Shown here: in pieces, positions 4,695 through 17,928 of the stretch | Position numbering within the stretch: the stretch's first letter is position 1 | How the letters are laid out: every line of letters starts with the position of its first letter | From: Geobacter metallireducens GS-15 | GTDB taxonomy: Bacteria > Desulfobacterota > Desulfuromonadia > Geobacterales > Geobacteraceae | Direction of reading: 5' to 3' | Length of the DNA stretch: 32,000 nt | NCBI RefSeq assembly: GCF_000012925.1 | Contig: NC_007517.1 | Span: 3,000,001-3,032,000 of the forward strand | Notes under the pieces: generated by a model | Databases searched by the model: none | Seen by the model: the letters and a program-made list of their open reading frames with translations, nothing else | What the model was told of the DNA's origin: nothing | Made by a program: the position numbers and the translations under genes

Positions 4695-7600
4695 CTACTT
4701 CCCTCCGCCCGCCGCAATGTCCTTGAGCCTCGTCCGCACCTCATCGGAAACGGCCTCATCGGGGTGCGCGGCCAGCCAGCGGGACAGGTTCATCTCCGCG
4801 TATCCCCAATGATCCTTGTATTCATACTCCACCAGACCACAGGTAAGCTGCAGGTCCGGCAGCCGCATCGGCTCGTCGCGCAGGAAGGTCACCCGCACCG
4901 GCATCCCCGGAGTCAGCCGGGCAACGGCAGTTAAAACCTCGTCCACATCCTTCATTCTCTGGGTGTCAAACGCCAGGATGATATCGCCGGCCTTCACCCC
5001 GGCACGCTCGGCGGGGCTTCCCGGCGCAACCGCCTGGACGTAGGCGCCCCCCTCGGCCCTTTTCAGCAGCTTCAGCCCCATCTGCGGCTTCCCCTGCCCC
5101 CCTGCCTGGGGTGGCGACATTTCGGGCACGATATCCACCTGGGCGGGGCGGTAGCCGGCCTCGGACAGCTTGAATGCCTGCACACAGTGCTTATGGACTT
5201 CATATCCCATGTCGTATTGATTCCTTGCCCTGGCCACCAGCTCCCGGACCCTCCCCAGATGGGTGCCGAGGGCCAGCTCCCGTATCGCCGGGTCCTTTGA
5301 ATCGGTGGCCGCCTCCAGGGCCGCATCGTCCTGCTCAAGGGTCCTGATCATGTCCACCGTCCCGAAGAACGACGGCCCCTCGCCAAGGAACATGAGCCGA
5401 CCCTCTCCCGCGCCGATTGAGGCGGTTTCATCCATCTGCTTTATGTAGTCATCCTTCGGGATATCGAAGTATGCCGACGTCGTCAGCTTCTTCCCCGGCC
5501 TGAGGGCGGCCCCCTTCTGCAGCAGCAGGCGCACCATGCGCCGCTGCGCAATCTTGGCCTTGGGGTCCGAACGTTCGTTGAGGGTGTTCAAGGCCACATA
5601 GATCGCGGAGCGTGTCGGGCGGTTCGGCTGCCTCTGGGCCACGGCGGTCGAAGCCCCCTTCTCCAGGAGGAGCTGCATGCATTTTTCCCGACCGGAGAAG
5701 ATGGCGCTGCCAAGAGGGGTGTACTGTCCAATCGAATCAGTCTCGTTCAGGTCTGCCCCTCGCTGGAGGAGAAGCGACAGGATTTCATCTGTGCAGATGC
5801 TGTCGCTCATTTCACTGAGGAGGCTCTGCTTGCCATAACTCATTTCATACCGGAAGTCGGCCCCGTTCTTCAGCAGAAACGCGGCAAAGTCGGCTGAATA
5901 GCTGGACACCAGCGGCGGGCCGCCAGGGAACCGCCGGACGTTGACGTTGGCGCCGCGACGCACCAGCAGTTCGGCCTTGGTCCGCCAGTCGCCAACGTAT
6001 TCGACCATGGTCAGCGGCGATTTCCCCTCCCTGTCGACTGCGTTGGGATTGGCACCCCGCTCCAGAAGCAATTGCACCGCCCGGGCGGAACCGAACTGCA
6101 CGGCTGTGGAAAGGAGCGGTTCGCCGCTCTCGGAGGTGGTGTTGGGATTGAGCCCCTGATCCAGCAGGGCAGTAAGGGTAGCCATGTCATCGTAGCTAAT
6201 GGCTTGCCAGGGGTCCGGCTGTCCGGCAAGCGTGAAGGACCACTCCCCGGCGGGGATGCCATCCACCTCTACCCGCATTCGATAGCGGCCGGGATAGCGG
6301 TTCCCGAGTTCATCGGTAAACCTGTAGTGCACCCCGCCGATCTTCCAGTGGGGAGGAGAGTAACCATTCTCTGTTTTTCCGCCGATGGCGGCAAAGAGCG
6401 GGTCATCGGAACCCTGTGTCACCTGGTAGTTGGCGCTTTTCAGCATGCCGCCGGTCGGCTCATGCCAGGAGACCGTAACCGAATGCCCCCCACGGCTTCG
6501 GGAAAGAGAGGCCTGATCGAATTCGATCCGGGCCACGATGCGCCGCACATCCTTGCGGTCGAAGCTTTCGGCGAATCCCCGGGTATTGTCGAGAGTATCG
6601 CTCTCATAGAAGCTGACGCCGGCAATGGCACAGGGAGGCGCCGCCTCGCCAGGGGCCACGGGCCTCACCGCCAGGTTGAAGCGCCTGAGGTCCGCCAGGT
6701 TGTCGAGGGCCAGCACCCCCAGGGAGGTATTGAACAGCACGTAGAGGGTATCGCCAGCCATGGCCATCCGGTGCCCATACCCCGCCGAGCGCATGATCTC
6801 CAGGGCTCCGCCCTGGCCGGCGAGGACGATCTCCCTGCCGGTGCTGACCACAAGGCCGGCCGGCGTCATGGCCAGCCCCGTCACGGATGCCGAGGGGTGG
6901 GTGTAGTAGGTGCTCTCAGCGCCGTCCTTCACGGAATAGCGGGCGACCGTTCGCCCCTTGGCCACGTAGAGGGCTTCAGCATCGCCCGTAACGGCGGTGA
7001 TGGGCTCGCCCGACTCATAGGCCAGCTCCATGTCGAGGATGCCGCCCCCCTTGAGGGAGCGGAGCAGGTAGAGAGCATGGCGACCACTTCGCGCGTCGAT
7101 GCCGGCACAGTAGACGGTTGTGCCGACGCTGGTCAGGACATCGATTTTGCGCAGGGGTACTTTCGTCACGGGCTGCAGCGCCGCATAGGGTACCCCCTTC
7201 TTGTCCAGGGTTTTCTCCCTGGGCTCGGCGAGGAGCAGCAGATCATTGCCGGCCGACAGGAGGAACACGCCGTTGGAGAGGTGGGTCATCCCTGAGATCG
7301 CGGCTTTCACGGCCACCATGAAGTTTCTGTCGGGGTAGAGCAGGTGGTATGTATCAGAATCACCGCTGAACGCCACAACGGGGGCACCTGCGGCACTGAC
7401 GCTGAAGATGGCGTCGGTTCTGGTCTTTTCCGTGGGGGGGAGCACCCATCGGGGGGCAACCTTAGCCCCCCTGAGGAACAGGAAGGTGGCCTCCGTGAAG
7501 AGGCTGGGCGCGGGCTGCCGCTCCACCGACGGCTTGGGTGCCTGAGGCGTCGGCGGCTTGGGTGCCTGCTGCGACGGTTTGGACACCTGCTGCTTGGGCG

Positions 7601-7706
7601 GCCTGGAGGCAGCCAGCCCCGGCATGCCCAGGAGCAGAGCTAAAATCTGTACCGCTGTTGCCAGCAACGCGGCTTTCCGCCTGATCATTCGCCGAACTGG
7701 ATCCAC
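4695..7706 (-). CDS. Large exported multidomain protein: Pro/Gln-rich linker, beta-rich N-terminal region, ~6-7 ankyrin repeats, C-terminal PDZ domain
   Basis: 1003-aa ORF. The GTG at 7706 is preceded by AAGGGGG. The alternative ATG at 7688 forms an ATGA overlap with the upstream stop. Signal peptide is MIRRKAALLATAVQILALLLGMPGLAAS, followed by the linker PKQQVSKPSQQAPKPPTPQAPKP. ANK repeats include GEPLLSTAVQFGSARAVQLLLERGANPNAVDREGKSPL. The PDZ segment is GAYVQAVAPGSPAERAGVKAGDIILAFD. Confidence 0.9.
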   Translation of the reverse strand: MDPVRRMIRRKAALLATAVQILALLLGMPGLAASRPPKQQVSKPSQQAPKPPTPQAPKPSVERQPAPSLFTEATFLFLRGAKVAPRWVLPPTEKTRTDAIFSVSAAGAPVVAFSGDSDTYHLLYPDRNFMVAVKAAISGMTHLSNGVFLLSAGNDLLLLAEPREKTLDKKGVPYAALQPVTKVPLRKIDVLTSVGTTVYCAGIDARSGRHALYLLRSLKGGGILDMELAYESGEPITAVTGDAEALYVAKGRTVARYSVKDGAESTYYTHPSASVTGLAMTPAGLVVSTGREIVLAGQGGALEIMRSAGYGHRMAMAGDTLYVLFNTSLGVLALDNLADLRRFNLAVRPVAPGEAAPPCAIAGVSFYESDTLDNTRGFAESFDRKDVRRIVARIEFDQASLSRSRGGHSVTVSWHEPTGGMLKSANYQVTQGSDDPLFAAIGGKTENGYSPPHWKIGGVHYRFTDELGNRYPGRYRMRVEVDGIPAGEWSFTLAGQPDPWQAISYDDMATLTALLDQGLNPNTTSESGEPLLSTAVQFGSARAVQLLLERGANPNAVDREGKSPLTMVEYVGDWRTKAELLVRRGANVNVRRFPGGPPLVSSYSADFAAFLLKNGADFRYEMSYGKQSLLSEMSDSICTDEILSLLLQRGADLNETDSIGQYTPLGSAIFSGREKCMQLLLEKGASTAVAQRQPNRPTRSAIYVALNTLNERSDPKAKIAQRRMVRLLLQKGAALRPGKKLTTSAYFDIPKDDYIKQMDETASIGAGEGRLMFLGEGPSFFGTVDMIRTLEQDDAALEAATDSKDPAIRELALGTHLGRVRELVARARNQYDMGYEVHKHCVQAFKLSEAGYRPAQVDIVPEMSPPQAGGQGKPQMGLKLLKRAEGGAYVQAVAPGSPAERAGVKAGDIILAFDTQRMKDVDEVLTAVARLTPGMPVRVTFLRDEPMRLPDLQLTCGLVEYEYKDHWGYAEMNLSRWLAAHPDEAVSDEVRTRLKDIAAGGGK

Positions 7707-9103
7707 GCCTTCACCCCCTTCCGTGATGCGGACAGCTCATCGTTGAAACGCTTCCAGAACCCCTCGGCATCGAAACTGGTGCCGGTCGCGGCCGTCGCAT
7801 CCACCATGAACCGGTTGAGGGCTTGGTAGGCGACCTTCGAATACATCCGCCCCCCCTCCACGGCAAACTCCGCATGGGGCCCCACCGGCTCGGGTATCTT
7901 GGAAATAATCAGATCCGCCGTCTCGGCGCCGGCCGCGGGAGCGCCCCCCTCCCCGGCTTTGACCGCGATGCGCCCCACAGCGAGCATCTTTTCGTAGTAC
8001 CCCTTGAATTTCTCGCCCCGGGCCTCTTCGATGGCGTCGCCGGTCTCCGACTCGATAATCTTCGTGATCTTGTCGGTGAAAAAATCAGCCGCAAACGCCG
8101 TAGTGATGGGATCATCGGGCTGGGACTTCGAATCCGCGGCAGAGGCGAGCCGGCGGTCCGGAGATTTGATGGTCCGCGCCGCATTGGCAGCCGAACTGTC
8201 CTGCTGGAACATCCCCATGACGGAGTTCAGGAGGGTCTTGCTCACCACCCGGGGAAGCGGCAGGCGGAGGCTGTCCCGCTCTTCGTCGGAACGGGGCTGC
8301 CCGGCGGCCATGGCCCACAGCTCGTTGCGCCGGCGCAGTGCCGCATAGAAGGCCTCCGCATCGGCGTCGGAGAGCACCCCATCCTTATTGAGCCTGGCGT
8401 AGAGCACGGCTACCGTTTCCTGTGCCGCCAGATATTCCTGCCATTGCTGCGGGGAAAAGCCGGGGAGTGGGACCACCGGCCGCGGGGCCTGGACCGTCTT
8501 GCTCAGGGGTTTCGCAGCGGGCATGAGCGCAACCAGCTTTCCCATCCGCTGGCGGTACTCTGAGCGCTCCTTCCGCAACTCTTCCTGTCGTTTCAGCTCC
8601 TGCTCGGCGCGGCGCAGGTTTTCCTGGATCACCTTGTCGTTGGGGGACTTGCCCACGGCATTCTTATAAAGCTCCACCGCCTTTGCCCAATCACTCTTCT
8701 CATAGGCCCGGTTCCCCTGCTCATTGAGGTTGAAGGCTTCCTGCTTCCGCTGCCGCTCCTCCTGCTGCCGTGCCTGCTCCCGCTCCTCCTGCCACTGGTT
8801 GATCCGCTCAAACAGGCTCGGGCCGCGTTCGTAACCGCTGTTTCCGCCGTCATCGCCGCCGGAGCCTCCGCACCCGCTGACACACTCCGGGCCGCTAACC
8901 GGCGGGATATACACTGACCCTCCGCCGGTCATGGACCGGAGCTGATCGAAGGCGCCGGCTGACGCCTCCGCAGTGAACGCGGCAGCGGCGCAGAACTGGC
9001 AGGCCGCCAGGAACAGAAGCCCCCGCCCCCTGAGGGTCTTAACTTTAATAAACCTCGTGCCCATAGTCATGGGAGGGCCCCCTCTCCGTGTCTCTCGATT
9101 CAT
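7685..9103 (-). CDS. Exported coiled-coil / TPR-like protein of unknown function
   Basis: 472-aa ORF. The better-supported start may be ATG 9070 (MTMGTRF...), which is preceded by GGAGAGGGGG. Signal peptide is ...LLFLAACQFCAAAAFTAEASA. It is followed by the Cys/Gly motif GPECVSGCGGSGGDDGGNSG and a charged coiled coil (QWQEEREQARQQEERQRKQEA). There is one TPR-like unit (NEQGNRAYEKSDWAKAVELYKNAV). Confidence 0.8.
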   Translation of the reverse strand: MNRETRRGGPPMTMGTRFIKVKTLRGRGLLFLAACQFCAAAAFTAEASAGAFDQLRSMTGGGSVYIPPVSGPECVSGCGGSGGDDGGNSGYERGPSLFERINQWQEEREQARQQEERQRKQEAFNLNEQGNRAYEKSDWAKAVELYKNAVGKSPNDKVIQENLRRAEQELKRQEELRKERSEYRQRMGKLVALMPAAKPLSKTVQAPRPVVPLPGFSPQQWQEYLAAQETVAVLYARLNKDGVLSDADAEAFYAALRRRNELWAMAAGQPRSDEERDSLRLPLPRVVSKTLLNSVMGMFQQDSSAANAARTIKSPDRRLASAADSKSQPDDPITTAFAADFFTDKITKIIESETGDAIEEARGEKFKGYYEKMLAVGRIAVKAGEGGAPAAGAETADLIISKIPEPVGPHAEFAVEGGRMYSKVAYQALNRFMVDATAATGTSFDAEGFWKRFNDELSASRKGVKAWIQFGE

Positions 9104-9854
9104 AGGTGTACCTGCCGCCCGGGAAGAACCTCTGCGTAACCTTCTCGAAAACAGGGAGGAACTCCCGGAATTTTTCCTCTGGGGCGGTGTAGCGCAGGGC
9201 GAAAAACCCCTGCTTCGCGGGGAGCACCACGAACCGCTCCCTGATGGGTATCCTTGTGGCGTTCAAGCCCGGCCGGATATACACACCAGGCTTTACGGGT
9301 CCGCCCGTCCCGCTTTCCCTCGGCGCGTACTCCTTCTTGACACGCTCGAACACCATTCCATCCCTGCCGGCAACCTTCACGGCCGTGACATCCCCGTAAC
9401 TGCTCCCATCAAGGGACACCCCCAAAGCCGGCTGCGCGAAAACCCTGAGGTAGTGGTCCACGGATTTGTACATCAGGTTCCCTTCCGCGTAGTAGAAGAT
9501 GGAGATAGCGACGGAGGGTTCGCCCGGCTCCGGGGCTTTCAGGTGAAAACCGTAGGTCTTTTTCTCCTCATTGCTCAAGCCGAGGCCGGATCCGTAGTTG
9601 TCGACCCGTGACCACTCCGGCGGGATATCGCAGGAGAAGTAGTCTCCCACCTCCACGGTCACAAACCCGTCGGGGTCGGGAATTCCCGGGATCAGCTCGT
9701 GGGGAACCGAATGCGTTAGCGGCAATGCCGAAGAGGGAAGGGAAGTGCCGGCCTGTGCCGGCCCATCCCACACTGCCAGCGCCGCCAGCAAAACCAAGCA
9801 CGGCAGCAGGGCCCGGGGATTGCACCTTTTCGTCACAACTGTCGATGCCTTCAT
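9045..9854 (-). CDS. Exported protein of unknown function
   Basis: 269-aa ORF. Its ATG overlaps the stop of the upstream ANK gene (ATGA at 9851-9854). Signal peptide is ...LLPCLVLLAALAVWDGPAQA. I recognise no motif with confidence. Confidence 0.75.
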   Translation of the reverse strand: MKASTVVTKRCNPRALLPCLVLLAALAVWDGPAQAGTSLPSSALPLTHSVPHELIPGIPDPDGFVTVEVGDYFSCDIPPEWSRVDNYGSGLGLSNEEKKTYGFHLKAPEPGEPSVAISIFYYAEGNLMYKSVDHYLRVFAQPALGVSLDGSSYGDVTAVKVAGRDGMVFERVKKEYAPRESGTGGPVKPGVYIRPGLNATRIPIRERFVVLPAKQGFFALRYTAPEEKFREFLPVFEKVTQRFFPGGRYTYESRDTERGPSHDYGHEVY

Positions 9855-10714
9855 ATCGTGTTTTTCCCCCAGTTCCTGAACAGTTCCACGATCGATGCGA
9901 AGCCGCGCTCCTCCGCCAGTTGCCGGGGGGTTAGCCCTCTGTCGTTCCTGATGGTCGGGTCGGCCCCCCGGGCAAGGAACAGTCTGACGAATTCTTCATA
10001 GCCAAGGCCGACGGCGTAATGGAGTGGCGTGTCGCCGTACCGGCCGGCGATATTGATGTCCGCGCCGCTGTCGAGGATGAGAGTCGCGGCCTCCAGCGCC
10101 TCTGCGGAAACGGCGGCATGGAGCGGTGTGAATCCCTTGTTGTCCGTGATGTTCACATCGGCCCCCTTTTCCAGCAGCAGGCGGACCATCCCGGTGTTGC
10201 CTCTCCGACAGGCCTCCCGCAGGGGGGTATACCAGTAGCTGTTGGCGATGGTCACATCGGCTCCGGCGTCGAGAAGAATCCGAGCAACATCGTCATGCCC
10301 CTCGTGAACGGCGGCAAAGAGGGGGGTGTTCCCCTCGCCATTGACGGCATTCACCCGGGCCCCGGCAGCGAGCAGAATCCGCGTCGCCTCGGCATGGCCG
10401 TAATGGGCCACGTTGTGGAGGAGGGTGATGCGGTACTCCTTGTCCGCGTAGTTGGCATCGGCCCCCTTGGCAAGGAAATCCCCGATGACACCGGCATCGC
10501 CGTATCCCTGGTTGAGGTAGAGGAAGAGCGCTTCCGAGGGGGGGGTCCCCTCCGGTATTTCCAGGGGCTTCAGGACCGGCTCGTACTTCCTGCCGAGGAA
10601 CTGCTCCAGAAGGTCGCCCCCTTCATCGGCGGCAGCCGCCGGACCCGCCGCCACCAGAAGCAGCAGAGCCATCAATACTGTGATTGCACGGAGCATCGTG
10701 GCTGCAATGGTCAT
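9851..10714 (-). CDS. Exported ankyrin-repeat protein (~6-7 ANK repeats)
   Basis: The ORF track gives 9851..10723 with a GTG start. ATG 10714 lies 6-9 nt after AAAGGAGGTG, so I prefer it. The signal peptide ends ...MALLLLVAAGPAAAA. Repeats are of the form TLLHNVAHYGHAEATRILLAAGARVNAVNGEGNTPL. Confidence 0.9.
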   Translation of the reverse strand: MTIAATMLRAITVLMALLLLVAAGPAAAADEGGDLLEQFLGRKYEPVLKPLEIPEGTPPSEALFLYLNQGYGDAGVIGDFLAKGADANYADKEYRITLLHNVAHYGHAEATRILLAAGARVNAVNGEGNTPLFAAVHEGHDDVARILLDAGADVTIANSYWYTPLREACRRGNTGMVRLLLEKGADVNITDNKGFTPLHAAVSAEALEAATLILDSGADINIAGRYGDTPLHYAVGLGYEEFVRLFLARGADPTIRNDRGLTPRQLAEERGFASIVELFRNWGKNTI

Positions 10715-10750
10715 GTCCAGCACCTCCTTTTCGGTCTTACGCTCTGGAAC

Positions 10751-13021
10751 TCACTCCCGCCAAGGAGGAGGCGTAAGCGGCAGCGGTTCATAATCGCCTT
10801 CCCCCTTCCCCTTCACGATCCGCATGGTGACACCCTTCTGCTTTGCGTAGACCTCCATGCGGTACTGGCCACCGAAGGAGGGGCGGCCGAAACCGCGCTC
10901 CGCTTCCATGGCAATCCTGTTCATAAACAGCCGATAGGTGATCTGCATCACCCCATCCTTCACAGAGGGCTCATCGAAGTGGATGGAGTAGAGCCACTCC
11001 GCCTCGGCCCCCAAAAAGACGCAGGCCACGGCGAAGTTATCGAAATCGACGATGGGCGCCGGCTTGTCAAAGGCCCGCTTCCAGAGATCCTCCCACTGGG
11101 TGCGGTCGTCCACCACCGTGATGAACGGCTCCTTCATGGCGGCGTCGTACCCTGTCCAGGACATGCCGGCATAGTCCCGCCCCGCGCCCGCTTTTTCCAG
11201 AAGCTCCAGCATCTTCCGATCGCCCCGCTCCGCAGCCAGGAGCCAGGCGGTTTTTCCGTCCCTGTTCGTGAGGGTGATGTCGGCCCCCTTGGCCAGCAGG
11301 ACCTGGGCCACGGCCGCGTTTCCCTGCCCCGCCGCCATCAGCAGGGCGCTCATCCCCTTGTCGTCCTGGGCGTTGATGTCGGCACCGTGCTCCAGGAGAT
11401 GGCGCACCACCTCGGGGTTGGCGTCGGACCAGTTCCCCGCCTCCAGGATAAGGGGGGTCTTCTGGTAGTAATCCCGGGCGTTCGGGTCGGCCCCCTTCTT
11501 CACCAGAAGCTTAACCATCTCCAGATCGGCCTTGGGAAGGGCCGTGAGGAGCGCATCCTTCACATCGGCCCCCTTGTCGATGAGCCGGGAGGCGAGGGAA
11601 ACGTTACGGGCCTTGATGGCCGCCTGCAAATCGTCGGTACGCACGGTAGCGCCCCGCTCCAAGAGCAGGCGAACGATCCCGTCATGCCCTCCGGCAATGG
11701 CGATAGTCAGCGCCCCCTCGGAATCCTTCCCCAGGATGTTGACATCGCCCCCCCTGGCAAGGAGGGCCTTGACCGTTGCCATATCCCCCTTCTCGCAGGC
11801 ATGCATCAGGGGAGTCTTCCCCCCTTCGTCGACGACATTGACCGGTGCCCCTCTGGCAATGAGGAGCCCGGCGATCTCCGCCGGCCCGTCCTTGATGGCC
11901 ATGGTCAGCAGCGGGGTGCCGCCGATGATGATGTCAGGGTCGGCCCCCCTCTCCAGCAGGAGCCGAACAGACTCCAGATGCTTGTTCATGGCCGCGAAAA
12001 CCAGGGCCGGCCGTCCCAGACTGGAGGCGTTCACGTCGGCCCCCTTGGCCAGGAGGGTCTTGACGACCTCGTCGTGGCCAGTGCTGGCCGCAAACATGAG
12101 GGGAGTGAAATCGGTGCCGTTTTTGGCGTCAATCTGCGCTCCCCTCTTCAGGAGAAGCTCAACCATGTCAGCCCGCCCCATGCTTGCGGCCTGCATGAGG
12201 GCCGTGCTCCCGTTGCCGAAGCGCCCGTTGACGTCGGCACCCTTGTCGAGGACCGCGACTACGTCAGCCGCGTTACCTCTCTTGACGGCGTCGGAGAGGG
12301 GGGTATTCGGCCCGAGAATGGCCAGGTCGGGCCGCTTCGGATCCTTGAGAAGCTGCGACAGGTAGTCGAGCTTCAACTCCTGGGCCAGGGTAATCGCGGT
12401 GTCGCCATCCTTATCCTTTGCGGAGGGATCGGCCCCCTTCCGGAGGAGCGGCCAGACCAGCCTGGCATCCGCGTGCCGCACGGCCCAGATGAGCGCGGTA
12501 CGGCCATATTCGCCCGCGGCATTCACCTCGGCGCCGTGCTTCAGAAGGGCTTCGAGGGTTTCCCGCGGGTCCCCTTCCGGCCCCCTGTGGAAAAACGCTC
12601 CCCTCATGGCAAGAATCAGGGGGGTATCCCCCTTTTTCGTCCAGGCGTTGACATCGGCCCCCTTTCCCAGGAGATAGGCGACGACCTTCGCGTGTCCCTG
12701 CTCGGCGGCATGGAGCAGGGGGGTTTGCTCAAACGCCCCTTTCGCGTCAACCTTCGCGCCGCTTTCCACCAGCAGCCGGACCACCTCCAGACAACCGTTT
12801 TCGGCGGCCAGCGACAGGGGAGTGCTGTCGTTGCGGTCTTTCCGGTCGCGATACGCGGGATTGGCGGCCCATGTGCGCGCCGTTGCCAGATCGCATTCCT
12901 TGGCAGCCGCGTGGAGGGGGGTGTGGTCCATGTCCGGCGGCGGCAGCATGGTCAGGGCAAAGGCCGGGGCCGCCAAGAGCAGCGTTGCGAGCAGAAGGGG
13001 GCCATTCATCCGTATAGTCAT
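10751..13021 (-). CDS. Exported ankyrin-repeat protein (~16 ANK repeats) with a distinct ~140-aa C-terminal domain (PrcB_C-like?)
   Basis: The ORF track start at 13060 has no RBS. ATG 13021 is preceded by AAGGAAGGA and forms an ATGA overlap with the methyltransferase stop, giving MTIRMNGPLLLATLLLAAPAFA. I counted about 16 (K/R)GA(D/x)(V/I/P)(N/D) repeat junctions. The C-terminus reads ...FITVVDDRTQWEDLWKRAFDKPAPIVDFDNFAVACVFLGAE... Confidence 0.9.
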   Translation of the reverse strand: MTIRMNGPLLLATLLLAAPAFALTMLPPPDMDHTPLHAAAKECDLATARTWAANPAYRDRKDRNDSTPLSLAAENGCLEVVRLLVESGAKVDAKGAFEQTPLLHAAEQGHAKVVAYLLGKGADVNAWTKKGDTPLILAMRGAFFHRGPEGDPRETLEALLKHGAEVNAAGEYGRTALIWAVRHADARLVWPLLRKGADPSAKDKDGDTAITLAQELKLDYLSQLLKDPKRPDLAILGPNTPLSDAVKRGNAADVVAVLDKGADVNGRFGNGSTALMQAASMGRADMVELLLKRGAQIDAKNGTDFTPLMFAASTGHDEVVKTLLAKGADVNASSLGRPALVFAAMNKHLESVRLLLERGADPDIIIGGTPLLTMAIKDGPAEIAGLLIARGAPVNVVDEGGKTPLMHACEKGDMATVKALLARGGDVNILGKDSEGALTIAIAGGHDGIVRLLLERGATVRTDDLQAAIKARNVSLASRLIDKGADVKDALLTALPKADLEMVKLLVKKGADPNARDYYQKTPLILEAGNWSDANPEVVRHLLEHGADINAQDDKGMSALLMAAGQGNAAVAQVLLAKGADITLTNRDGKTAWLLAAERGDRKMLELLEKAGAGRDYAGMSWTGYDAAMKEPFITVVDDRTQWEDLWKRAFDKPAPIVDFDNFAVACVFLGAEAEWLYSIHFDEPSVKDGVMQITYRLFMNRIAMEAERGFGRPSFGGQYRMEVYAKQKGVTMRIVKGKGEGDYEPLPLTPPPWRE

Positions 13022-14259
13022 GCTGATCCTTCCTTTTCTATGACAGAGACAGGTTCCCATGGAGGGATGCCGTTCATTTCAGCCATCAGCGCCGGCCGGT
13101 GCGCGTGCTTCACCTCGCTGGGGGAGGCGTCGAGGGCCGCCAGAGCCATTTCGTAATTGAGCCGCGCCGCATCGGCGTTACGGTGCAGGCCGTGGATCCG
13201 CGCACTGTTCCAGTAGACAAAGGGGTTGTCCCGGAAGATGCGGGAGGATTCCCCGAAGCTGTCAAGGGCCTCCCGGTACTCCCCCAGATGGAACTGCTTG
13301 AGCCCCCTGGCGAACACCTTGTCCGCCAGGGACTTCAGGAGCGGTTCGGAGAACACCGTCACCGGCCTCCCCTCGTCCCTCGGCAACTCAACGGTTTTAC
13401 CGGCAAGCACGGCCGAGATGATGGCAATGCCGTCCCGGAGGATTTCCCGATAGGCGTCCCCCTGCCGGCCGGCCCCCTCGGGCCGGGCCTTCAGCATGGC
13501 CAGGAGAGCCCCCTGGAACCGGCTCTCTGCCAGACGGGCGGCAACGGCGCGGCATTTTCCGGCATTGGCATCACTCTTCCCCTTGAGGGTGAAAAACTCA
13601 CGGACGATTTCCGCGCTGTACACGGCAAGCCCCATGGTCTCGGCGGCGTCCCGCTGCAGGGCATCGGCAAGGCGCTTCAGCAGCTCCTCCTGCCCGGCCA
13701 TGACGAGTTCATCTTCGAAGGCGGGAATTTCCTGCATCACGAGCCGCTTCCTCAGTTCGGCCATGAACTCGTGCTGTTTCCGGTCGGCCGGCTTTCGCAG
13801 GATCAGCCGCAGGGAGGGCCGGTTATCCTGATAGAGGAAGGATTCATGGTGCATGAGGGCGAACCCGGCCTCGGCAACCAGCTCCCGCAGCAGTTCCAGG
13901 GGGAAGCAGAACCGGTGCTGCATGCCGGCAGTTTCGGCGCCGTAGAGCCATGTCAGGGCGTCCTCCCGGGCTGTCCGGTCTCCGGCCAGGAAAATCTCGA
14001 AGGAGCGCTCCAGATGTGGCGTTTCAAGGCGGAGCGTCCCACTCGGCCGCAGCACCCGGAAACACTCGGCCAGAAAGTACTTCCCCTTGAAAAACCCGAG
14101 GTGTTCCATAAGCTGCGACGCCACGATCTCGTCAACGGAGGCTGTGTCCAGGCACAGGTCATGGGCCTCCATAATGGCGTCGGCGACAGAATCGCCGCTG
14201 ACGTCGATGTTCAGGTGCCCTTTCAGGTAGGTATGGCCGCAGCCGATGTTCAGTTTCAT
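13018..14259 (-). CDS. Class I SAM-dependent methyltransferase fused to a C-terminal TPR-like helical domain (cytoplasmic)
   Basis: 413-aa ORF. The N-terminus MKLNIGCGHTYLKGHLNIDV...VDEIVASQLMEHL...ECFRVLRPSGTLRLETP matches the Methyltransf_11-type pattern (motif I, then the (E/D)HL and RVL(K/R)PGG motifs). The C-terminal helices include YREALDSFGESSRIFRDNPFVYWNSARIH. There is no signal peptide. Confidence 0.85.
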   Translation of the reverse strand: MKLNIGCGHTYLKGHLNIDVSGDSVADAIMEAHDLCLDTASVDEIVASQLMEHLGFFKGKYFLAECFRVLRPSGTLRLETPHLERSFEIFLAGDRTAREDALTWLYGAETAGMQHRFCFPLELLRELVAEAGFALMHHESFLYQDNRPSLRLILRKPADRKQHEFMAELRKRLVMQEIPAFEDELVMAGQEELLKRLADALQRDAAETMGLAVYSAEIVREFFTLKGKSDANAGKCRAVAARLAESRFQGALLAMLKARPEGAGRQGDAYREILRDGIAIISAVLAGKTVELPRDEGRPVTVFSEPLLKSLADKVFARGLKQFHLGEYREALDSFGESSRIFRDNPFVYWNSARIHGLHRNADAARLNYEMALAALDASPSEVKHAHRPALMAEMNGIPPWEPVSVIEKEGSA

Positions 14260-14262
14260 GGT

Positions 14263-15414
14263 CTACCGGTGGCCGAGAAACGAGTCCCTCAGCCTTTTTT
14301 CATTCCCCCGGGCGCCGAGGGTCGCGAGCCTCCTGCGCGCCTTCAACAGGAGCCGGTACCAGGGGTTTCGCAGCTCTCTCTCGAAAATGTGCTGCTCGAT
14401 CCGGTGGAAGCAGTAGGGATCGTTGTGGAATTCCCCGGTCTTCATGAGGGACATCTCGTTGCATCCCCCCTTGCACGTGGCCAAGTGCGGGCATACGCGG
14501 CAGTTCTCCCCGGCGTCGTCGGCGGTAAAGCCCCGCGAATAGGGGAAAGCCCCGGCGCTCCGCCAGAGATCGCGGACCGACGTCTCCCGCACATTGCCGG
14601 CAATGGTGCTGTCGTCCATGGAGAGGCACCCCTTGATGTTGCCGTTGCTCTGGATGCCGATGACCGACACCCCGGCCTGGCACCCCGTCCACTCACCGGT
14701 CAACGAGATGTTGTCCAGCATCAGGGAGTGGTAGCCCATGTCATGGGCGCCGATGACCGGCATCGCGTGAATCGGGTACGCTTTTCGGGTGGAGGCGATG
14801 AAGAGCCCCACGGAATAGAACTCTTCCTCGTCCAGGAGCAACTCCCGGGGGAATCTCCTTCCCTCGGCCCCGGCCACCTGGATCTGCCACGCAACGTTTT
14901 TCCTCAGCAACTGCTCCCGCAGAGCCGTAAGTTCCGTCAGGTTCATCCTGTGGACCGTGGTGATGACGCTCACCGGCAGTCCCGCCTCCCCTGCCGCCCG
15001 GATGAAATCCCAGGTTTCCCGGAAGGCGCCGCTCCGCCCCCGGATATGGTCGTGGATGGCGGGGGTTGCGGCATCGAGGCTCACGGCAACGGCGCGGGGG
15101 TCCAGTTCCCTGAGCCGCGCGAAGATCTCGGGGTCATGAATCGTCCCGTTGGTGATGACGGAGAGCTCCATGCCGAGCTTCCTGATGAGGCCGGCGATCT
15201 GCCAGAAATCCTTCCTCAGGAGCGGCTCGCCCCCCATGAGGGCAACGCCGAGGCAGCCGGCCTCTTTCAGGTCATGACACAGGGCCACGGCCTCGTCGGT
15301 CGTCAGCTCGTCGGTTCTCCTGCTCCCCGCGCTCGACCCGCAGTGGATGCAGTTCAGGTTGCAGGCCAGGGTAAACTCCCAAACCGCGCATTCGAGGGTA
15401 TAGGCGCCGTTCAC
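14263..15414 (-). CDS. Radical SAM / SPASM-domain enzyme (protein or peptide maturase type), no N-terminal RRE/PqqD domain
   Basis: 383-aa ORF with a GTG start preceded by GGGGTAGG. The radical SAM cluster motif is C18-x3-C22-x2-C25 (ACNLNCIHCG), and a GGEPLL motif is present. The SPASM signature is CQAGVSVIGIQSNGNIKGC (C-x12-G-x4-C) followed by CRVCPHLATCKGGC (C-x2-C-x5-C-x3-C) and a trailing Cys. Confidence 0.92.
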   Translation of the reverse strand: MNGAYTLECAVWEFTLACNLNCIHCGSSAGSRRTDELTTDEAVALCHDLKEAGCLGVALMGGEPLLRKDFWQIAGLIRKLGMELSVITNGTIHDPEIFARLRELDPRAVAVSLDAATPAIHDHIRGRSGAFRETWDFIRAAGEAGLPVSVITTVHRMNLTELTALREQLLRKNVAWQIQVAGAEGRRFPRELLLDEEEFYSVGLFIASTRKAYPIHAMPVIGAHDMGYHSLMLDNISLTGEWTGCQAGVSVIGIQSNGNIKGCLSMDDSTIAGNVRETSVRDLWRSAGAFPYSRGFTADDAGENCRVCPHLATCKGGCNEMSLMKTGEFHNDPYCFHRIEQHIFERELRNPWYRLLLKARRRLATLGARGNEKRLRDSFLGHR

Positions 15415-15426
15415 GACCTACCCCGC

Positions 15427-15894
15427 TCAGCGGGAGAGGTGCCGGAAATCCCGGACGCTCACGGTGTAGTACTTGGTGCCGCAGGGATAACCGGGGAAGG
15501 GACCGCCACAGTCGTCATCGGGAATCACCGGCTCCGCCTGCTGGGCGAGGCACTCCTGTGCGCACTCCTCCCTGGTTTCGAAGGGAACCACGCCTTCGCA
15601 GCCCCCGTAGACGAACTCCTTGCACTCATTGGTCTTCGGGTCAAAATAGTATTTCCAGAACAGGGCCTTGCAGGGACCGCCGTCCGGCTTGAGGCGGCAC
15701 TTCTCCGGCAGCGGCTCCTTGGCCTGGGGTTTTACGTGATCTTGAAGAGGAACCGTGGCATCAGCCTGGGCCGAACCAGTAAAGGCGGAAATGATCAATG
15801 CCATAAGCCCCGACATGCCGATCCTGACGAAGCTCCTGATCTCGCCTTCTCCAAGACCCGCCTTTTTCCCGATTCGAGCAATTTTCCTGTTCAT
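15427..15894 (-). CDS. Exported Kunitz/BPTI-domain protein (predicted trypsin-type serine protease inhibitor, P1 Lys) with a Cys/Asp-containing C-terminal tail
   Basis: The ORF track gives 15427..15918. ATG 15894 (MNRKIARIG...) is preceded by GGGGG 7 nt upstream, so I prefer it. The hydrophobic signal segment ends AFTGSAQA. The domain CRLKPDGGPCKALFWKYYFDPKTNECKEFVYGGCEGVVPFETREECAQEC has Cys spacing 8-15-7-11-3. BPTI has 8-15-7-12-3 ([51 protein letters not shown]). GPCKA and FVYGGC are shared with BPTI. Confidence 0.85.
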   Translation of the reverse strand: MNRKIARIGKKAGLGEGEIRSFVRIGMSGLMALIISAFTGSAQADATVPLQDHVKPQAKEPLPEKCRLKPDGGPCKALFWKYYFDPKTNECKEFVYGGCEGVVPFETREECAQECLAQQAEPVIPDDDCGGPFPGYPCGTKYYTVSVRDFRHLSR

Positions 15895-15986
15895 CTCCAC
15901 ACCCCCGGATTCTGTCATAATTTTCGCCGGCCAAGGTTATATGGTCCTGTATTCCCTATCGGTTCGCGCATTCTTTTCTTGACCGA

Positions 15987-16013
15987 ATTATACGGATTTT
16001 ATCGCTCTGTCAG
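15987..16013 (-). promoter_or_regulatory. Candidate sigma70-type promoter upstream of the Kunitz/rSAM/methyltransferase genes
   Basis: On the minus strand there is a perfect TATAAT at 15992..15987, with CTGACA at 16013..16008. The spacer is only 15 nt, which is suboptimal. The site lies in the 106-130 nt gap between the 16025 stop and the Kunitz start. Confidence 0.3.
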
Positions 16014-16024
16014 TGCTTACGCCG

Positions 16025-16321
16025 CTAATCCTTGAAGAGTAATGTTGCTTTCACGACCTGTTTCCCGTCATGCTCGATTTCGCACACATAGCGCCCCATG
16101 ACGCCGCTGGCCGTGACCAGGGCCTTAGTGGGGGAAGTGCTGTCAAAAAACCGGAAACCGCTTTGCAGCGCCTTCTCTTTCGCAACAGCCAGCAAAGTGC
16201 CGGCAGCCGTTTCGCGGCAGTAGCCGACCAGTTTTTTCTTGGTCCGGTAGCCGTCTGCCACACCGACCAGAAACATCAATATGATAACGGCCAATACCAG
16301 CTTGAAAACTTTCTTCACCAT
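16025..16321 (-). CDS. Small membrane-anchored protein of unknown function
   Basis: The ORF track gives 16025..16327 with a GTG start. The ATG at 16321 follows GGGGGTGG. The N-terminal TM segment is VFKLVLAVIILMFLVGV, followed by a ~70-aa soluble part with 2 Cys. Confidence 0.6.
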   Translation of the reverse strand: MVKKVFKLVLAVIILMFLVGVADGYRTKKKLVGYCRETAAGTLLAVAKEKALQSGFRFFDSTSPTKALVTASGVMGRYVCEIEHDGKQVVKATLLFKD

Positions 16322-16491: not shown

Positions 16492-17928
16492 ATGCGTTTT
16501 TATAACAGGGAAAAAGAACTTGCCCGCCTAATGGAAATAGCCACCCTCTCGGAAGAGTCGGCCCACCTGGCGGTCATCACCGGCAGGCGCCGGGTCGGCA
16601 AGACCGAACTGATCCGAAAGTTCGCCGAAGGACGGGACGACTTTCTCTATTTCTTCGTGTCGAAGAAAAAACCTCGCGTTCTGCTCGATGAATTCCGGGA
16701 TCTCCTGGCCGCACGGGTGCCGCTGCTGGCCTCGGCATCCTTCGGGAGCTTTGACGATTTCTTCCGCGCTCTTTTCGAAATCACGAAAGAGCGCCCGCTG
16801 TTTATCGTCTTCGACGAGTTCCAGAACTTCCAGCAGGTGGACCCGGCGGTCTTTTCGACGCTCCAGGATCTGTGGGACCGGAACAAGGGCACCATCAAGG
16901 GGACCATCGTCTGCATCGGGTCGGTGCAGACCCTCATGCGCGAGATCTTCGAGGGCGCCAAGGAACCGCTCTTCGGTCGAGTGACCGCCCGGCTCTACGT
17001 GGAGCCCCTGATCCCCGACGTGGTTGCCACAATCCTTGCCGACCACCAGGTTGATGCGGTCAGGCACCTCCCCTTCTTCTTCACCCTCTTCGGCGGCATC
17101 CCCAAATACTATTTCCTGCTCGACCGCTACCGGCTCTTCGGCAAAACTCCGGCGGAGATCATCCGAAAATTCTTCTGCGAGACCGACGCCCTCTTACAGA
17201 ACGAGGGGAAAGACCTCCTGGTGGAGGAGTTCGGCAAGAACTATCATCTCTACTTCTCCATCCTTCAGGTTATCGCCGGCGGCGAGAACCAGATGGCCCG
17301 CATCGCCGACAAGTCGGGGATCAACGTCAACAGCATCAGCAAATACCTCGACGAACTGACCTCCTACTACCAGGTCATCGAGCGACGGCTGCCGGTGACG
17401 GCGACCCGGCAGGAGCAGAAAACCGGCCGCTACTACCTGAAGGATCCGTTGCTCCGTTTCTGGTTCCGGTACATCTACCGCAACCAGAGCCTGATCGAGA
17501 TCGGCGACGAAGAGGGGCTTCTGGGCAAGATCCAGGCAGATCTCTCGACCTTCATGGGGTGGTCGTTCGAGGAGTTGATCCGCGCCATGCTCCTGAAGCG
17601 CAATGACGGCACGGTGGTTCCGTTCGGCTTCACCCGGATCGGCGGATTCTGGACCAAGCGGGGGGATGTGGAGATTGACATCGTGGCGCTCAACGAGGAG
17701 GATGGAGCGATCTTCTTCGGCGAATGCAAGTTGAGCGGCAGCAGGTTCAGCGTGGCCGATGCCCGGCGGCTAAAGGAAAAGGCCAAGGCTGTCCCATGGC
17801 GCACCGGCGACCGGCGGGAGCATTTTGTCCTTTTCTGTATGGACGACCTTGAGAGCGACGCGGAACAGGCCCTTGCCGCCGAAGGGGTCGGCGTCGTAAG
17901 GCTTCGCCAGCTGCTATCGGTGCCATAA
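16492..17928 (+). CDS. AAA ATPase (archaeal-ATPase type, Walker A GRRRVGKT) with C-terminal DUF234 / PD-(D/E)xK-like domain
   Basis: 478-aa ORF. The N-terminus MRFYNREKELARL...LAVITGRRRVGKTELIRKF and the Walker B-like LFIVFDEFQ fit this ATPase type. The C-terminus GDVEIDIVALNEEDGAIFFGECKLS matches the D...(E)xK pattern typical of DUF234. No Shine-Dalgarno is visible upstream of the ATG. Confidence 0.85.
   Translation: MRFYNREKELARLMEIATLSEESAHLAVITGRRRVGKTELIRKFAEGRDDFLYFFVSKKKPRVLLDEFRDLLAARVPLLASASFGSFDDFFRALFEITKERPLFIVFDEFQNFQQVDPAVFSTLQDLWDRNKGTIKGTIVCIGSVQTLMREIFEGAKEPLFGRVTARLYVEPLIPDVVATILADHQVDAVRHLPFFFTLFGGIPKYYFLLDRYRLFGKTPAEIIRKFFCETDALLQNEGKDLLVEEFGKNYHLYFSILQVIAGGENQMARIADKSGINVNSISKYLDELTSYYQVIERRLPVTATRQEQKTGRYYLKDPLLRFWFRYIYRNQSLIEIGDEEGLLGKIQADLSTFMGWSFEELIRAMLLKRNDGTVVPFGFTRIGGFWTKRGDVEIDIVALNEEDGAIFFGECKLSGSRFSVADARRLKEKAKAVPWRTGDRREHFVLFCMDDLESDAEQALAAEGVGVVRLRQLLSVP

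Follow-up and report, generated by a model that had tools for sequence, protein, structure and literature searches.

Why does a gene for an exported Kunitz-type protein directly precede genes for two modifying enzymes, and what do these enzymes act on? The question is raised by a locus of Geobacter metallireducens GS-15, within a stretch of 32,000 nucleotides (nt) of contig NC_007517.1 (positions 3,000,001 to 3,032,000; hereafter the window, in whose own numbering positions are given), where a Kunitz gene, a gene for a radical S-adenosylmethionine (SAM)/SPASM enzyme (rSAM) and a methyltransferase (MT) gene follow one another head-to-tail on the minus strand. We consider it fairly likely that the three genes form a maturation cassette of the type known from peptides that are synthesized on ribosomes and modified post-translationally (RiPPs), with the Kunitz protein as the precursor and a core in its C-terminal tail as the modified part. 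Judged from its sequence, the Kunitz protein very probably serves as their substrate. An earlier note on this DNA had drawn the same conclusion and was probably right, since the protein bears both the leader and the core of the precursor family described below. What that note called protein-level maturation is better seen as a graft in which a leader and a core of RiPP type enclose a Sec signal and a Kunitz domain.

Linkage of the enzymes to leader- and core-bearing precursors

We compared 100 related loci, the window itself included, 80 of which come from a scan of metagenome contigs; three loci with further Kunitz homologues (L100–L102) were added later and are left out of the counts. A hidden Markov model (HMM) of the C-terminal core detected 87 core-bearing open reading frames (ORFs) in 49 of the 100 loci (domain E ≤ 1e-3), 84 of them on the strand of the rSAM gene and 82 within 2 kb of it (median distance 184 nt), and gave no match among 13,360 reversed control ORFs. 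The rSAM–MT pair is found in 54 loci, archaeal ones included, and of the 50 loci flanked by 1.5 kb or more on each side, 32 hold a core and 38 an MT gene. By these counts, the linkage of the genes is far beyond chance. When all ORFs of the loci were clustered, only rSAM, MT and the precursors emerged as conserved; no protease, transporter, sortase-like partner, tetrapyrrole or cofactor gene and no PqqB/C/D/F- or MftB/D/E-type partner did so. Adjacency of Kunitz and rSAM genes recurs in Geobacteraceae, Syntrophus and Syntrophorhabdaceae, which, together with the conserved enzyme pair, agrees with the functional unit of three genes that the earlier note had proposed. The co-occurrence that it expected holds for the rSAM–MT pair and for a recurring Kunitz neighbour, but most partners of the enzyme family lack a Kunitz domain.

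What the partners share are two short motifs. The N-terminal leader has the approximate consensus IGxKxGLxxxEI (for example FQLxKIGKELGLSKKEINxV), and an HMM built from 12 seeds also finds rSAM-adjacent partners outside the seed set, in L001, L011 (five copies), L012, L023, L024, L027, L063, L066 and L084. The C-terminal core comprises about 15 residues of the form Y-[PK]-x-G-[TG]-x-Y-x-T-[VI]-S-x-[KR]-D-F (for example TYPSGTKYSTVKIKDF); the consensus of 85 unique cores reads [TV]-Y-[PK]-[SA]-G-[TG]-x-Y-[GS]-T-[VI]-[SK]-[IP]-[KR]-D-F, in an alignment anchored on the central Tyr, whose invariance is therefore partly by construction. The Geobacter tail YPCGTKYYTVSVRDF agrees with every position of this consensus, and Y142, D149 and F150 do not vary within the Kunitz clade. 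The Kunitz precursor scores 49 bits against the leader HMM and 34.8 bits against the core HMM.

Precursor genes beside rSAM and MT are small and encode a leader, usually a hydrophobic segment, and a C-terminal core. They form tandem arrays of two to five genes in some loci (L078, L080, L084, L087, L089, L011), while elsewhere a single leader is followed by two to four repeated cores of the form YK[SA]G[GT]xYGT[IV]SxKD[IVF] (L009, L039, L042, L097). Precursors of 47–70 residues without a transmembrane segment are headed by the same leader motif, most archaeal precursors are short peptides, and leaderless short precursors (e.g., MKKKEHVEP..YKSGGxYGTISIKDF) also lie beside rSAM. This genetic architecture, with leader and core, multi-core peptides, tandem genes and tight linkage, is RiPP-type. 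Even at E ≤ 10, seven precursor variants had no match in Pfam or NCBIfam, and the rSAM/MT precursor family is widespread and apparently undescribed. Some archaeal tandem arrays encode a variant form in which the same leader precedes two hydrophobic segments with YP[FY] between them and the C-terminus reads Y[GN]V[FYW]S[RK], not ...KDF (Table 1). At one Elusimicrobia locus (L006:6735-6926), the partner of 63 amino acids (aa) ends after leader, hydrophobic segment and lipobox, with the core absent, and may be a disrupted precursor.

Comparison of the Kunitz-bearing loci with their closest relatives indicates which parts of the precursor are conserved. Three Geobacteraceae loci (L001–L003) have the Kunitz, rSAM and MT genes side by side, and in G. 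hydrogenophilus (L001) the rSAM is 94% identical and the gene order is the same. In the Syntrophus and Syntrophorhabdaceae loci (L015–L017), Kunitz and rSAM genes overlap by 11 nt at the rSAM start and the MT is absent, which makes the MT accessory. At the Elusimicrobia loci, rSAM is followed by MT and then by the partner, which lacks a Kunitz domain; it combines the same N-terminal ~25 residues with a lipobox, whose Cys stands at the place equivalent to the Geobacter AQA site (Table 1), a low-complexity linker and a Geobacter-like tail (72% identity over 25 residues). Since these partners keep both ends without the domain, the conserved features are the two protein ends. The rSAM family itself counts more than 1,600 clusters at E ≤ 1e-20, with about 60% identity to the Geobacter enzyme in Elusimicrobia and 48–50% in metagenome-assembled genomes (MAGs) of Thermoplasmata and Nanohalarchaeota. 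In a neighbour-joining tree, all Kunitz-linked enzymes form one clade, with the lipoprotein/linker clade as its sister group, and the two lie nested in a large radiation of enzymes with short precursors; from this nesting, the Kunitz domain is a derived insertion.

Natural losses point the same way as the counts. None of the three Kunitz homologues without a core (L100–L102) lies beside an intact rSAM of this family. L100 has kept its leader and lost, in a single deletion, both the core and rSAM residues 1–106, including the cluster motif, so that a core-less Kunitz gene is now fused to a SPASM-only rSAM remnant (L100:5992-7156). The Kunitz gene of L101 has neither leader, core nor rSAM, and that of L102 encodes a plain signal peptide, without a core, in a locus that holds no rSAM of this family.

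The three gene products and their surroundings

Features of the cassette are collected in Table 1. The start of the Kunitz gene corresponds to Met9 of the longest ORF, as an alignment places it at a start common to 18 homologues. Its stop codon (TGA) is separated by 12 nt from the GTG start of rSAM, the rSAM stop (TAG) lies 3 nt before the ATG of MT, and the MT stop overlaps, as ATGA, the start of a gene for a 769-aa ankyrin-repeat (ANK) protein with a signal peptide (ANK769). These coordinates bear out the spacings and the overlap given earlier. Signal peptides and cleavage sites were called by inspection only, and inspection likewise agrees with the earlier view that both flanking products carry a signal peptide (ending ...SAQA|D in the Kunitz protein and ...APAFA|L in ANK769) and that neither rSAM nor MT does.

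Table 1 Features of the cassette in the window, and archaeal arrays with the variant core
Feature	Position	Strand	Details
Kunitz precursor gene	15427..15894	(-)	155 aa; leader, Sec signal, Kunitz domain and C-terminal core
Leader-like n-region MNRKIARIGKKAGLGEGEIRSFVR	15823..15894	(-)	residues 1-24; leader HMM
Hydrophobic signal segment ending AQA	15763..15822	(-)	residues 25-44; inspection
Kunitz/BPTI domain	15550..15699	(-)	residues 66-115; Pfam
Core motif YPCGTKYYTVSVRDF	15445..15489	(-)	residues 136-150; proposed modification site
Radical SAM/SPASM enzyme gene (rSAM)	14263..15414	(-)	383 aa; without N-terminal RiPP recognition element (RRE)
CxxxCxxC cluster motif C18, C22, C25	15340..15363	(-)	invariant in 11-homologue alignment
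SPASM auxiliary-cluster Cys C245, C263, C305, C308, C314, C318, C335	14410..14682	(-)	alignment, Pfam
Methyltransferase gene (MT)	13018..14259	(-)	413 aa
Class I SAM-dependent MT domain	13795..14259	(-)	residues 1-155; Pfam Methyltransf_11/23
All-helical C-terminal MT domain	13072..13779	(-)	residues 161-396; pLDDT mostly >90; last ~80 residues like tetratricopeptide repeats (TPR)
Variant-core arrays	L010:8879-9985, L011:6759-8639, L067:5128-5932, L079:3254-4467, L063:5410-5988		

The Kunitz domain matches Pfam Kunitz_BPTI (PF00014) with 53 bits (cut-off 21; E = 3.9e-14) and has six Cys in the spacing C-x8-C-x15-C-x7-C-x11-C-x3-C and a GPCKA loop with Lys at P1. In an alignment of Kunitz homologues the C, G, K and A of the reactive loop are invariant or nearly so. 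The protein is predicted to be an inhibitor of the Kunitz/BPTI family. The hydrophobic segment ends in AQA, presumed to be a signal peptidase I site. An AlphaFold model of the precursor reaches a pLDDT (predicted local distance difference test) of 70–77 in the Kunitz domain only; leader and tail score low, consistent with peptide-like segments.

The rSAM matches Pfam Radical_SAM (PF04055) with 102.4 bits (cut-off 29.5) and SPASM (PF13186) with 29.7 bits (cut-off 21.5). Its SPASM motifs, C245-x12-G-x4-C263 and C305-x2-C308-x5-C314-x3-C318 plus C335 (TIGR04085-type), comprise seven Cys that do not vary among 11 homologues with identities down to 48%. Profile alignment starts with residues 4–16 against residues 100–135 of SkfB, SuiB and CteB, and the cluster motif begins at residue 18, so that the enzyme has no N-terminal RRE; profile and alignment thus uphold the CxxxCxxC motif at residues 18–25, the missing RRE and the full SPASM motif already read from the sequence. 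The closest solved structures are SkfB, PqqE, SuiB, CteB and anSME. Of 72 matching NCBIfam families, the best 25 were examined against their cut-offs (the other 47 score lower), and rSAM lies below the cut-off in each of these 25, the GeoRSP, Scm, ACGX and NirJ1 models included. The best model, TIGR03913 (GDL-motif peptide-associated rSAM/SPASM maturase), scores 194.7 bits against a cut-off of 591.75 and the second, TIGR04103 (Nif11-class peptide rSAM maturase 3), 189 bits against 725; MftC (135 bits) and PqqE (101 bits) remain far below their cut-offs, and AhbD, NirJ2 and NirJ (E values of 1e-42 to 1e-34) score 3–4 fold below theirs. In NCBIfam and the PDB, its best relatives are SPASM enzymes that modify peptides, namely the GDL-motif and Nif11 maturases, MftC, SkfB, PqqE and SuiB. 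The earlier note had suggested this family assignment as a check, counting membership in a family with a known unrelated substrate against its view; as no cut-off is reached among the best 25 and AhbD, NirJ, MftC and PqqE score lower still, the enzyme stands outside these families.

Two side observations concern further radical SAM enzymes. Many archaeal loci contain two or three SPASM-enzyme paralogues, and a radical SAM protein of ~460 aa with a B12-binding domain occurs in eight related loci (L039:4105-5421 and seven others). Some members of the precursor family may therefore receive additional modifications.

The MT is, by sequence and predicted structure, a class I SAM-dependent methyltransferase: Methyltransf_11 scores 22.5 bits (cut-off 21.2), and an AlphaFold model (pLDDT 89) has a Foldseek probability of 1.0 to class I methyltransferases. 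An alignment of 21 sequences has 39 invariant columns, 37 of them within residues 1–133, with G6-C7-G8 and D19 invariant. Foldseek searches with the model returned generic class I methyltransferases only and gave no clue to the acceptor. The family comprises about 189 clusters (50% identity) at E ≤ 1e-30, and the window MT is 100% identical to GeomeDRAFT_0417. The earlier note had described the enzyme as a methyltransferase–TPR fusion, of which a helical, TPR-like C-terminus stands, with residues 305–396 modelled as paired helices, but the TPR score of the window MT stays below threshold (TPR_2, 16.1 bits at residues 316–344, cut-off 27). Two homologues (P0175 and P0181) score 25.9–26.4 bits against the same cut-off. 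Most archaeal homologues keep the helical domain (tblastn alignments run from query residue 1 to ~400), and its distal part is missing in the ~320-aa forms of Elusimicrobia. The domain is a plausible docking module and, since rSAM lacks an RRE, a reasonable candidate for binding the leader.

Around the cassette, a scan of the window for promoters and terminators gave counts no higher than in shuffled sequence, leaving the operon boundaries undefined, and an Rfam scan of the window found no RNA family. Two long antisense ORFs span the cassette (10019-13156 (+), 1045 aa, and 13099-16035 (+), 978 aa); these are shadow ORFs typical of high-GC coding DNA, without independent support. The ANK769 gene (10751-13060, minus strand) is missing from the otherwise syntenic G. 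hydrogenophilus locus and is a variable insertion outside the conserved cassette. On the opposite strand, a gene with a DUF234/ATPase_2 (archaeal-type ATPase) domain (16492-17928 (+)) has no tblastn homologue in L001, where the flanking genes are otherwise kept, and is probably an insertion as well. A 1003-aa protein with ANK repeats and a C-terminal PDZ domain (4695-7706 (-)) has 73% identity in L001.

Kunitz genes also occur in other company. In L101, from a Nitrospiraceae MAG (L101:1644-6309), the Kunitz gene adjoins homologues of the 290-aa ANK protein of the window (45% identity) and of its 269-aa and 472-aa proteins (window 7685-10723), and the locus has no rSAM or MT. Kunitz genes and exported ANK proteins may thus constitute a conserved neighbourhood of their own that does not depend on the maturation cassette. 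Serpin genes lie 1–3 kb from Kunitz-type genes in three loci (L016:8530-9741, L017:6406-7617, L102:6578-7789), and L016 encodes a 763-aa ANK protein besides serpin and Kunitz, so that two families of protease inhibitors recur together and in the company of ANK proteins. In L102, a different radical SAM gene, followed by a PF27846 (tSAM_targ_Cxxx_rpt) peptide, lies 1–4 kb upstream of the Kunitz/serpin pair (L102:1794-4993) and appears to belong to an unrelated maturation system.

Proposed site, chemistry and alternative readings

If the Kunitz protein is matured as a RiPP-type precursor, the unfolded pre-protein would be held in the cytoplasm by its leader, possibly via the helical/TPR-like domain of MT. 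The rSAM would oxidatively modify the core, most likely by cross-linking Tyr142 to a nearby side chain, and MT would then methylate the canonical core, with Thr/Ser at position +2 or Tyr at −6 as candidate acceptors. During Sec export, signal peptidase I would cut after AQA and take off leader and signal together; with both removed in one step, no dedicated protease or transporter would be needed, and the lipobox of Elusimicrobia would do likewise. The Kunitz domain would finally fold in the periplasm with three disulfides, bearing the modified C-terminal tail. PqqE, MftC and the enzymes that form Arg-Tyr links or cyclophanes suggest, by analogy, the aligned core Tyr as the most likely radical target, which we regard as a lead, and a cross-link at this Tyr followed by methylation is our best guess at the chemistry. 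The nature of the residue at +2 goes along with the presence of MT, which is found in 21 of 22 loci with T/S at this position and in none of five with G/A (Fisher p = 7e-5).

Several points weigh against this reading. The proposed site and chemistry are drawn from sequence conservation, and the signal peptide and its cleavage site are judged by eye. About one-third of the loci with long flanks have no detectable canonical core; some of the core-less loci carry, after a second hydrophobic segment, a variant core of the form Y[GN]V[FYW]S[RK], others nothing obvious. The precursors of L047, L048, L056 and L076 lack the IGxKxGL leader, so that dependence on a leader is not universal. The correlation between MT and position +2 spans two or three lineages, its p value is not corrected for phylogeny, and it is confounded because the five G/A loci also lack the Tyr at −6. 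Kunitz loci of the Syntrophus type lack the MT, and for the proposed docking module Foldseek gives generic methyltransferase matches only.

Among the alternatives, the one that survives best, and which we still hold to be unlikely, is that the leader is modified, or regulatory, in the cytoplasm and that the C-terminal motif is a sorting, anchoring or binding tag acting after export and untouched by rSAM. The leader would indeed remain in the cytoplasm alongside both enzymes, and the motif lies at the extreme C-terminus as sorting signals do, with basic residues after it in many archaeal forms. Multi-core peptides, however, place two to four cores behind a single leader, leaderless precursors still adjoin rSAM, and no sortase-like partner is conserved; moreover, it was the core, not the leader, that L100 lost together with the active site of rSAM.

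A cofactor-like fate of the core itself, in which it is processed to a Tyr-derived redox-active or quinone-like moiety resembling pyrroloquinoline quinone (PQQ) or mycofactocin, tethered to the carrier or released, strikes us as quite improbable. Repeated cores and tandem precursors suit peptide products better than the production of a cofactor, and the missing PqqB/C/D/F- and MftB/D/E-type partners and low MftC and PqqE scores speak against it too, even though PqqE and MftC, both among the scoring relatives, target a conserved Tyr near the precursor C-terminus and the core holds two conserved Tyr plus Lys/Arg.

The earlier note had favoured another chemistry, for which we see very little room. 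In this reading, rSAM forms Cys-to-Asp/Glu thioethers like QhpD, or otherwise alters the Kunitz domain in its folded form or the DDDCGG...C tail segment, and MT methylates the product. QhpD and anSME do modify proteins prior to export, the PDB relatives of rSAM include anSME, and Geobacter and Elusimicrobia tails share the motif [DN]-C-G-(G)-P-x-P-G-Y-P-C, but the residues concerned are not conserved among the rSAM-linked partners: both Cys and the acidic run are gone in the Syntrophus/Syntrophorhabdaceae Kunitz partners, whose genes still overlap that of rSAM, and are missing in L026, L029 and nearly all short precursors. This loss makes a QhpD-like thioether unlikely and tells against the Asp/Cys residues of the tail as the modification site. 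A folded Kunitz domain fares no better as the target, as most partners of the enzyme family have none and its Cys are required for its own three disulfides. The alternative substrates named alongside it, the ANK proteins and the upstream 100-aa protein, match neither the leader nor the core HMM, and ANK769 and the 100-aa protein are not conserved with the cassette.

Least probable of all is that rSAM and MT act on a small molecule or cofactor, like AhbD, NirJ or MoaA, with the adjacent small genes merely co-regulated: the AhbD and NirJ matches, the missing RRE and the unusual conservation of rSAM (48–60% identity across Geobacter, Elusimicrobia and archaea) would fit, but the scores are far below the curated cut-offs, no tetrapyrrole or cofactor genes are conserved nearby, the tight, strand-specific linkage to core-bearing ORFs extends across phyla and two domains of life, and L100 lost core and rSAM together.

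Beyond the RiPP-type maturation of the Kunitz protein, the family may represent an undescribed class of radical-SAM-modified products in Bacteria and Archaea, with the Tyr-centred core as a portable functional tag on exported proteins, a tentative view that we stop short of calling probable. The core would be deployed as a free peptide, a multi-core peptide, a lipoprotein tail or, in Geobacter and relatives, the tail of a Kunitz inhibitor, and the leader would sit in the n-region of a Sec or lipoprotein signal, with general signal peptidases replacing a dedicated leader protease.

Significance and relation to known systems

Should the RiPP-type reading be correct, the cassette would stand for a new rSAM/SPASM RiPP family across Desulfobacterota, Elusimicrobiota, Thermoplasmata and DPANN-type archaea, in which a Sec signal and a folded domain can be set between leader and core, blurring the border between peptide natural products and post-translational modification of proteins. 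It would also be a second, mechanistically different form of Sec-coupled RiPP maturation besides the MNIO bufferins. In practical terms, it would offer a minimal system of three genes, in G. metallireducens, which is genetically tractable, in which to discover a new radical SAM reaction, a possible enzymatic handle to tag the C-termini of exported proteins, and a functional lead on the very rare bacterial Kunitz inhibitors. In the open-access literature, we found no description of a Kunitz–radical SAM system, of the core motif or of such archaeal RiPPs.

QhpD and anSME are cytoplasmic SPASM enzymes that modify periplasm-bound, possibly sizeable polypeptides before export. QhpC requires its own protease and ABC exporter; in the present family, by contrast, neither the thioether Cys and Asp/Glu nor protease or exporter genes are conserved, and the QhpD model is absent from the best 25 of the 72 NCBIfam matches to rSAM. 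Unlike the sulfatases modified by anSME, the Kunitz protein lacks the C/S-x-P-x-R motif.

The only documented parallel for RiPP precursors with Sec signals, a feature called highly unusual, is the MNIO bufferin/oxazolin group (PMC12452194). In place of a classical cleavable leader, bufferin and oxazolin precursors carry Sec or lipoprotein signals; some have the size of proteins or are fused to other domains, and modification has to come before export. They use an MNIO and a DUF2063 partner on Cys, whereas the present system combines rSAM/SPASM and MT with a Tyr-centred core, and, unlike in bufferins, a distinct leader motif precedes the hydrophobic segment and is also found in precursors without a signal segment. 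Neither Pfam nor ORF clustering gave an MNIO or DUF2063 among the cassette genes, and the likeness is one of logic only.

Cyclopropyl synthases of the TvgB/TigE type are SPASM enzymes that act on repeated TVGG or TIGSVS cores with a conserved Thr-Val/Ile and are defined by a GYW motif, with Tyr as a ligand of auxiliary cluster I, and an N-terminal RRE (PMC10878394). The present core likewise has T-[VI], as T-[VI]-S. We rejected such an activity for rSAM, which has GYH (residues 227–229), not GYW, and no RRE. One weak PDB match to rSAM (E = 2e-4) is possibly TigE.

The two best-scoring NCBIfam models, TIGR03913 and TIGR04103, align with nearly the whole rSAM from its first residues and are likewise RRE-less, but the precursors of the present family have neither the GDL motif nor a Nif11 leader. 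Closest in overall logic are PqqE/PqqA, MftC/MftA, SuiB/streptide and the enzymes of triceptides (3-residue cyclophanes), which share with the cassette a radical SAM core with a seven-Cys SPASM domain as well as precursors whose leader is N-terminal and whose core, repeated in some cases, is C-terminal and has a conserved Tyr. Unlike in these systems, there is neither a fused RRE nor a conserved PqqD/MftB-like gene nearby, the Y-x5-Y-x-T-[VI]-S-x-K-D-F core lies outside the Pfam and NCBIfam precursor models, and the sole conserved partner is a dedicated MT that carries a helical/TPR-like domain. Judged by its sequences, the cassette appears to work like an rSAM/SPASM RiPP pathway and stands outside every curated family compared; its novel points would be the precursor family itself, an MT partner in place of an RRE protein, a leader merged into export signals, and a folded inhibitor inserted between leader and core.

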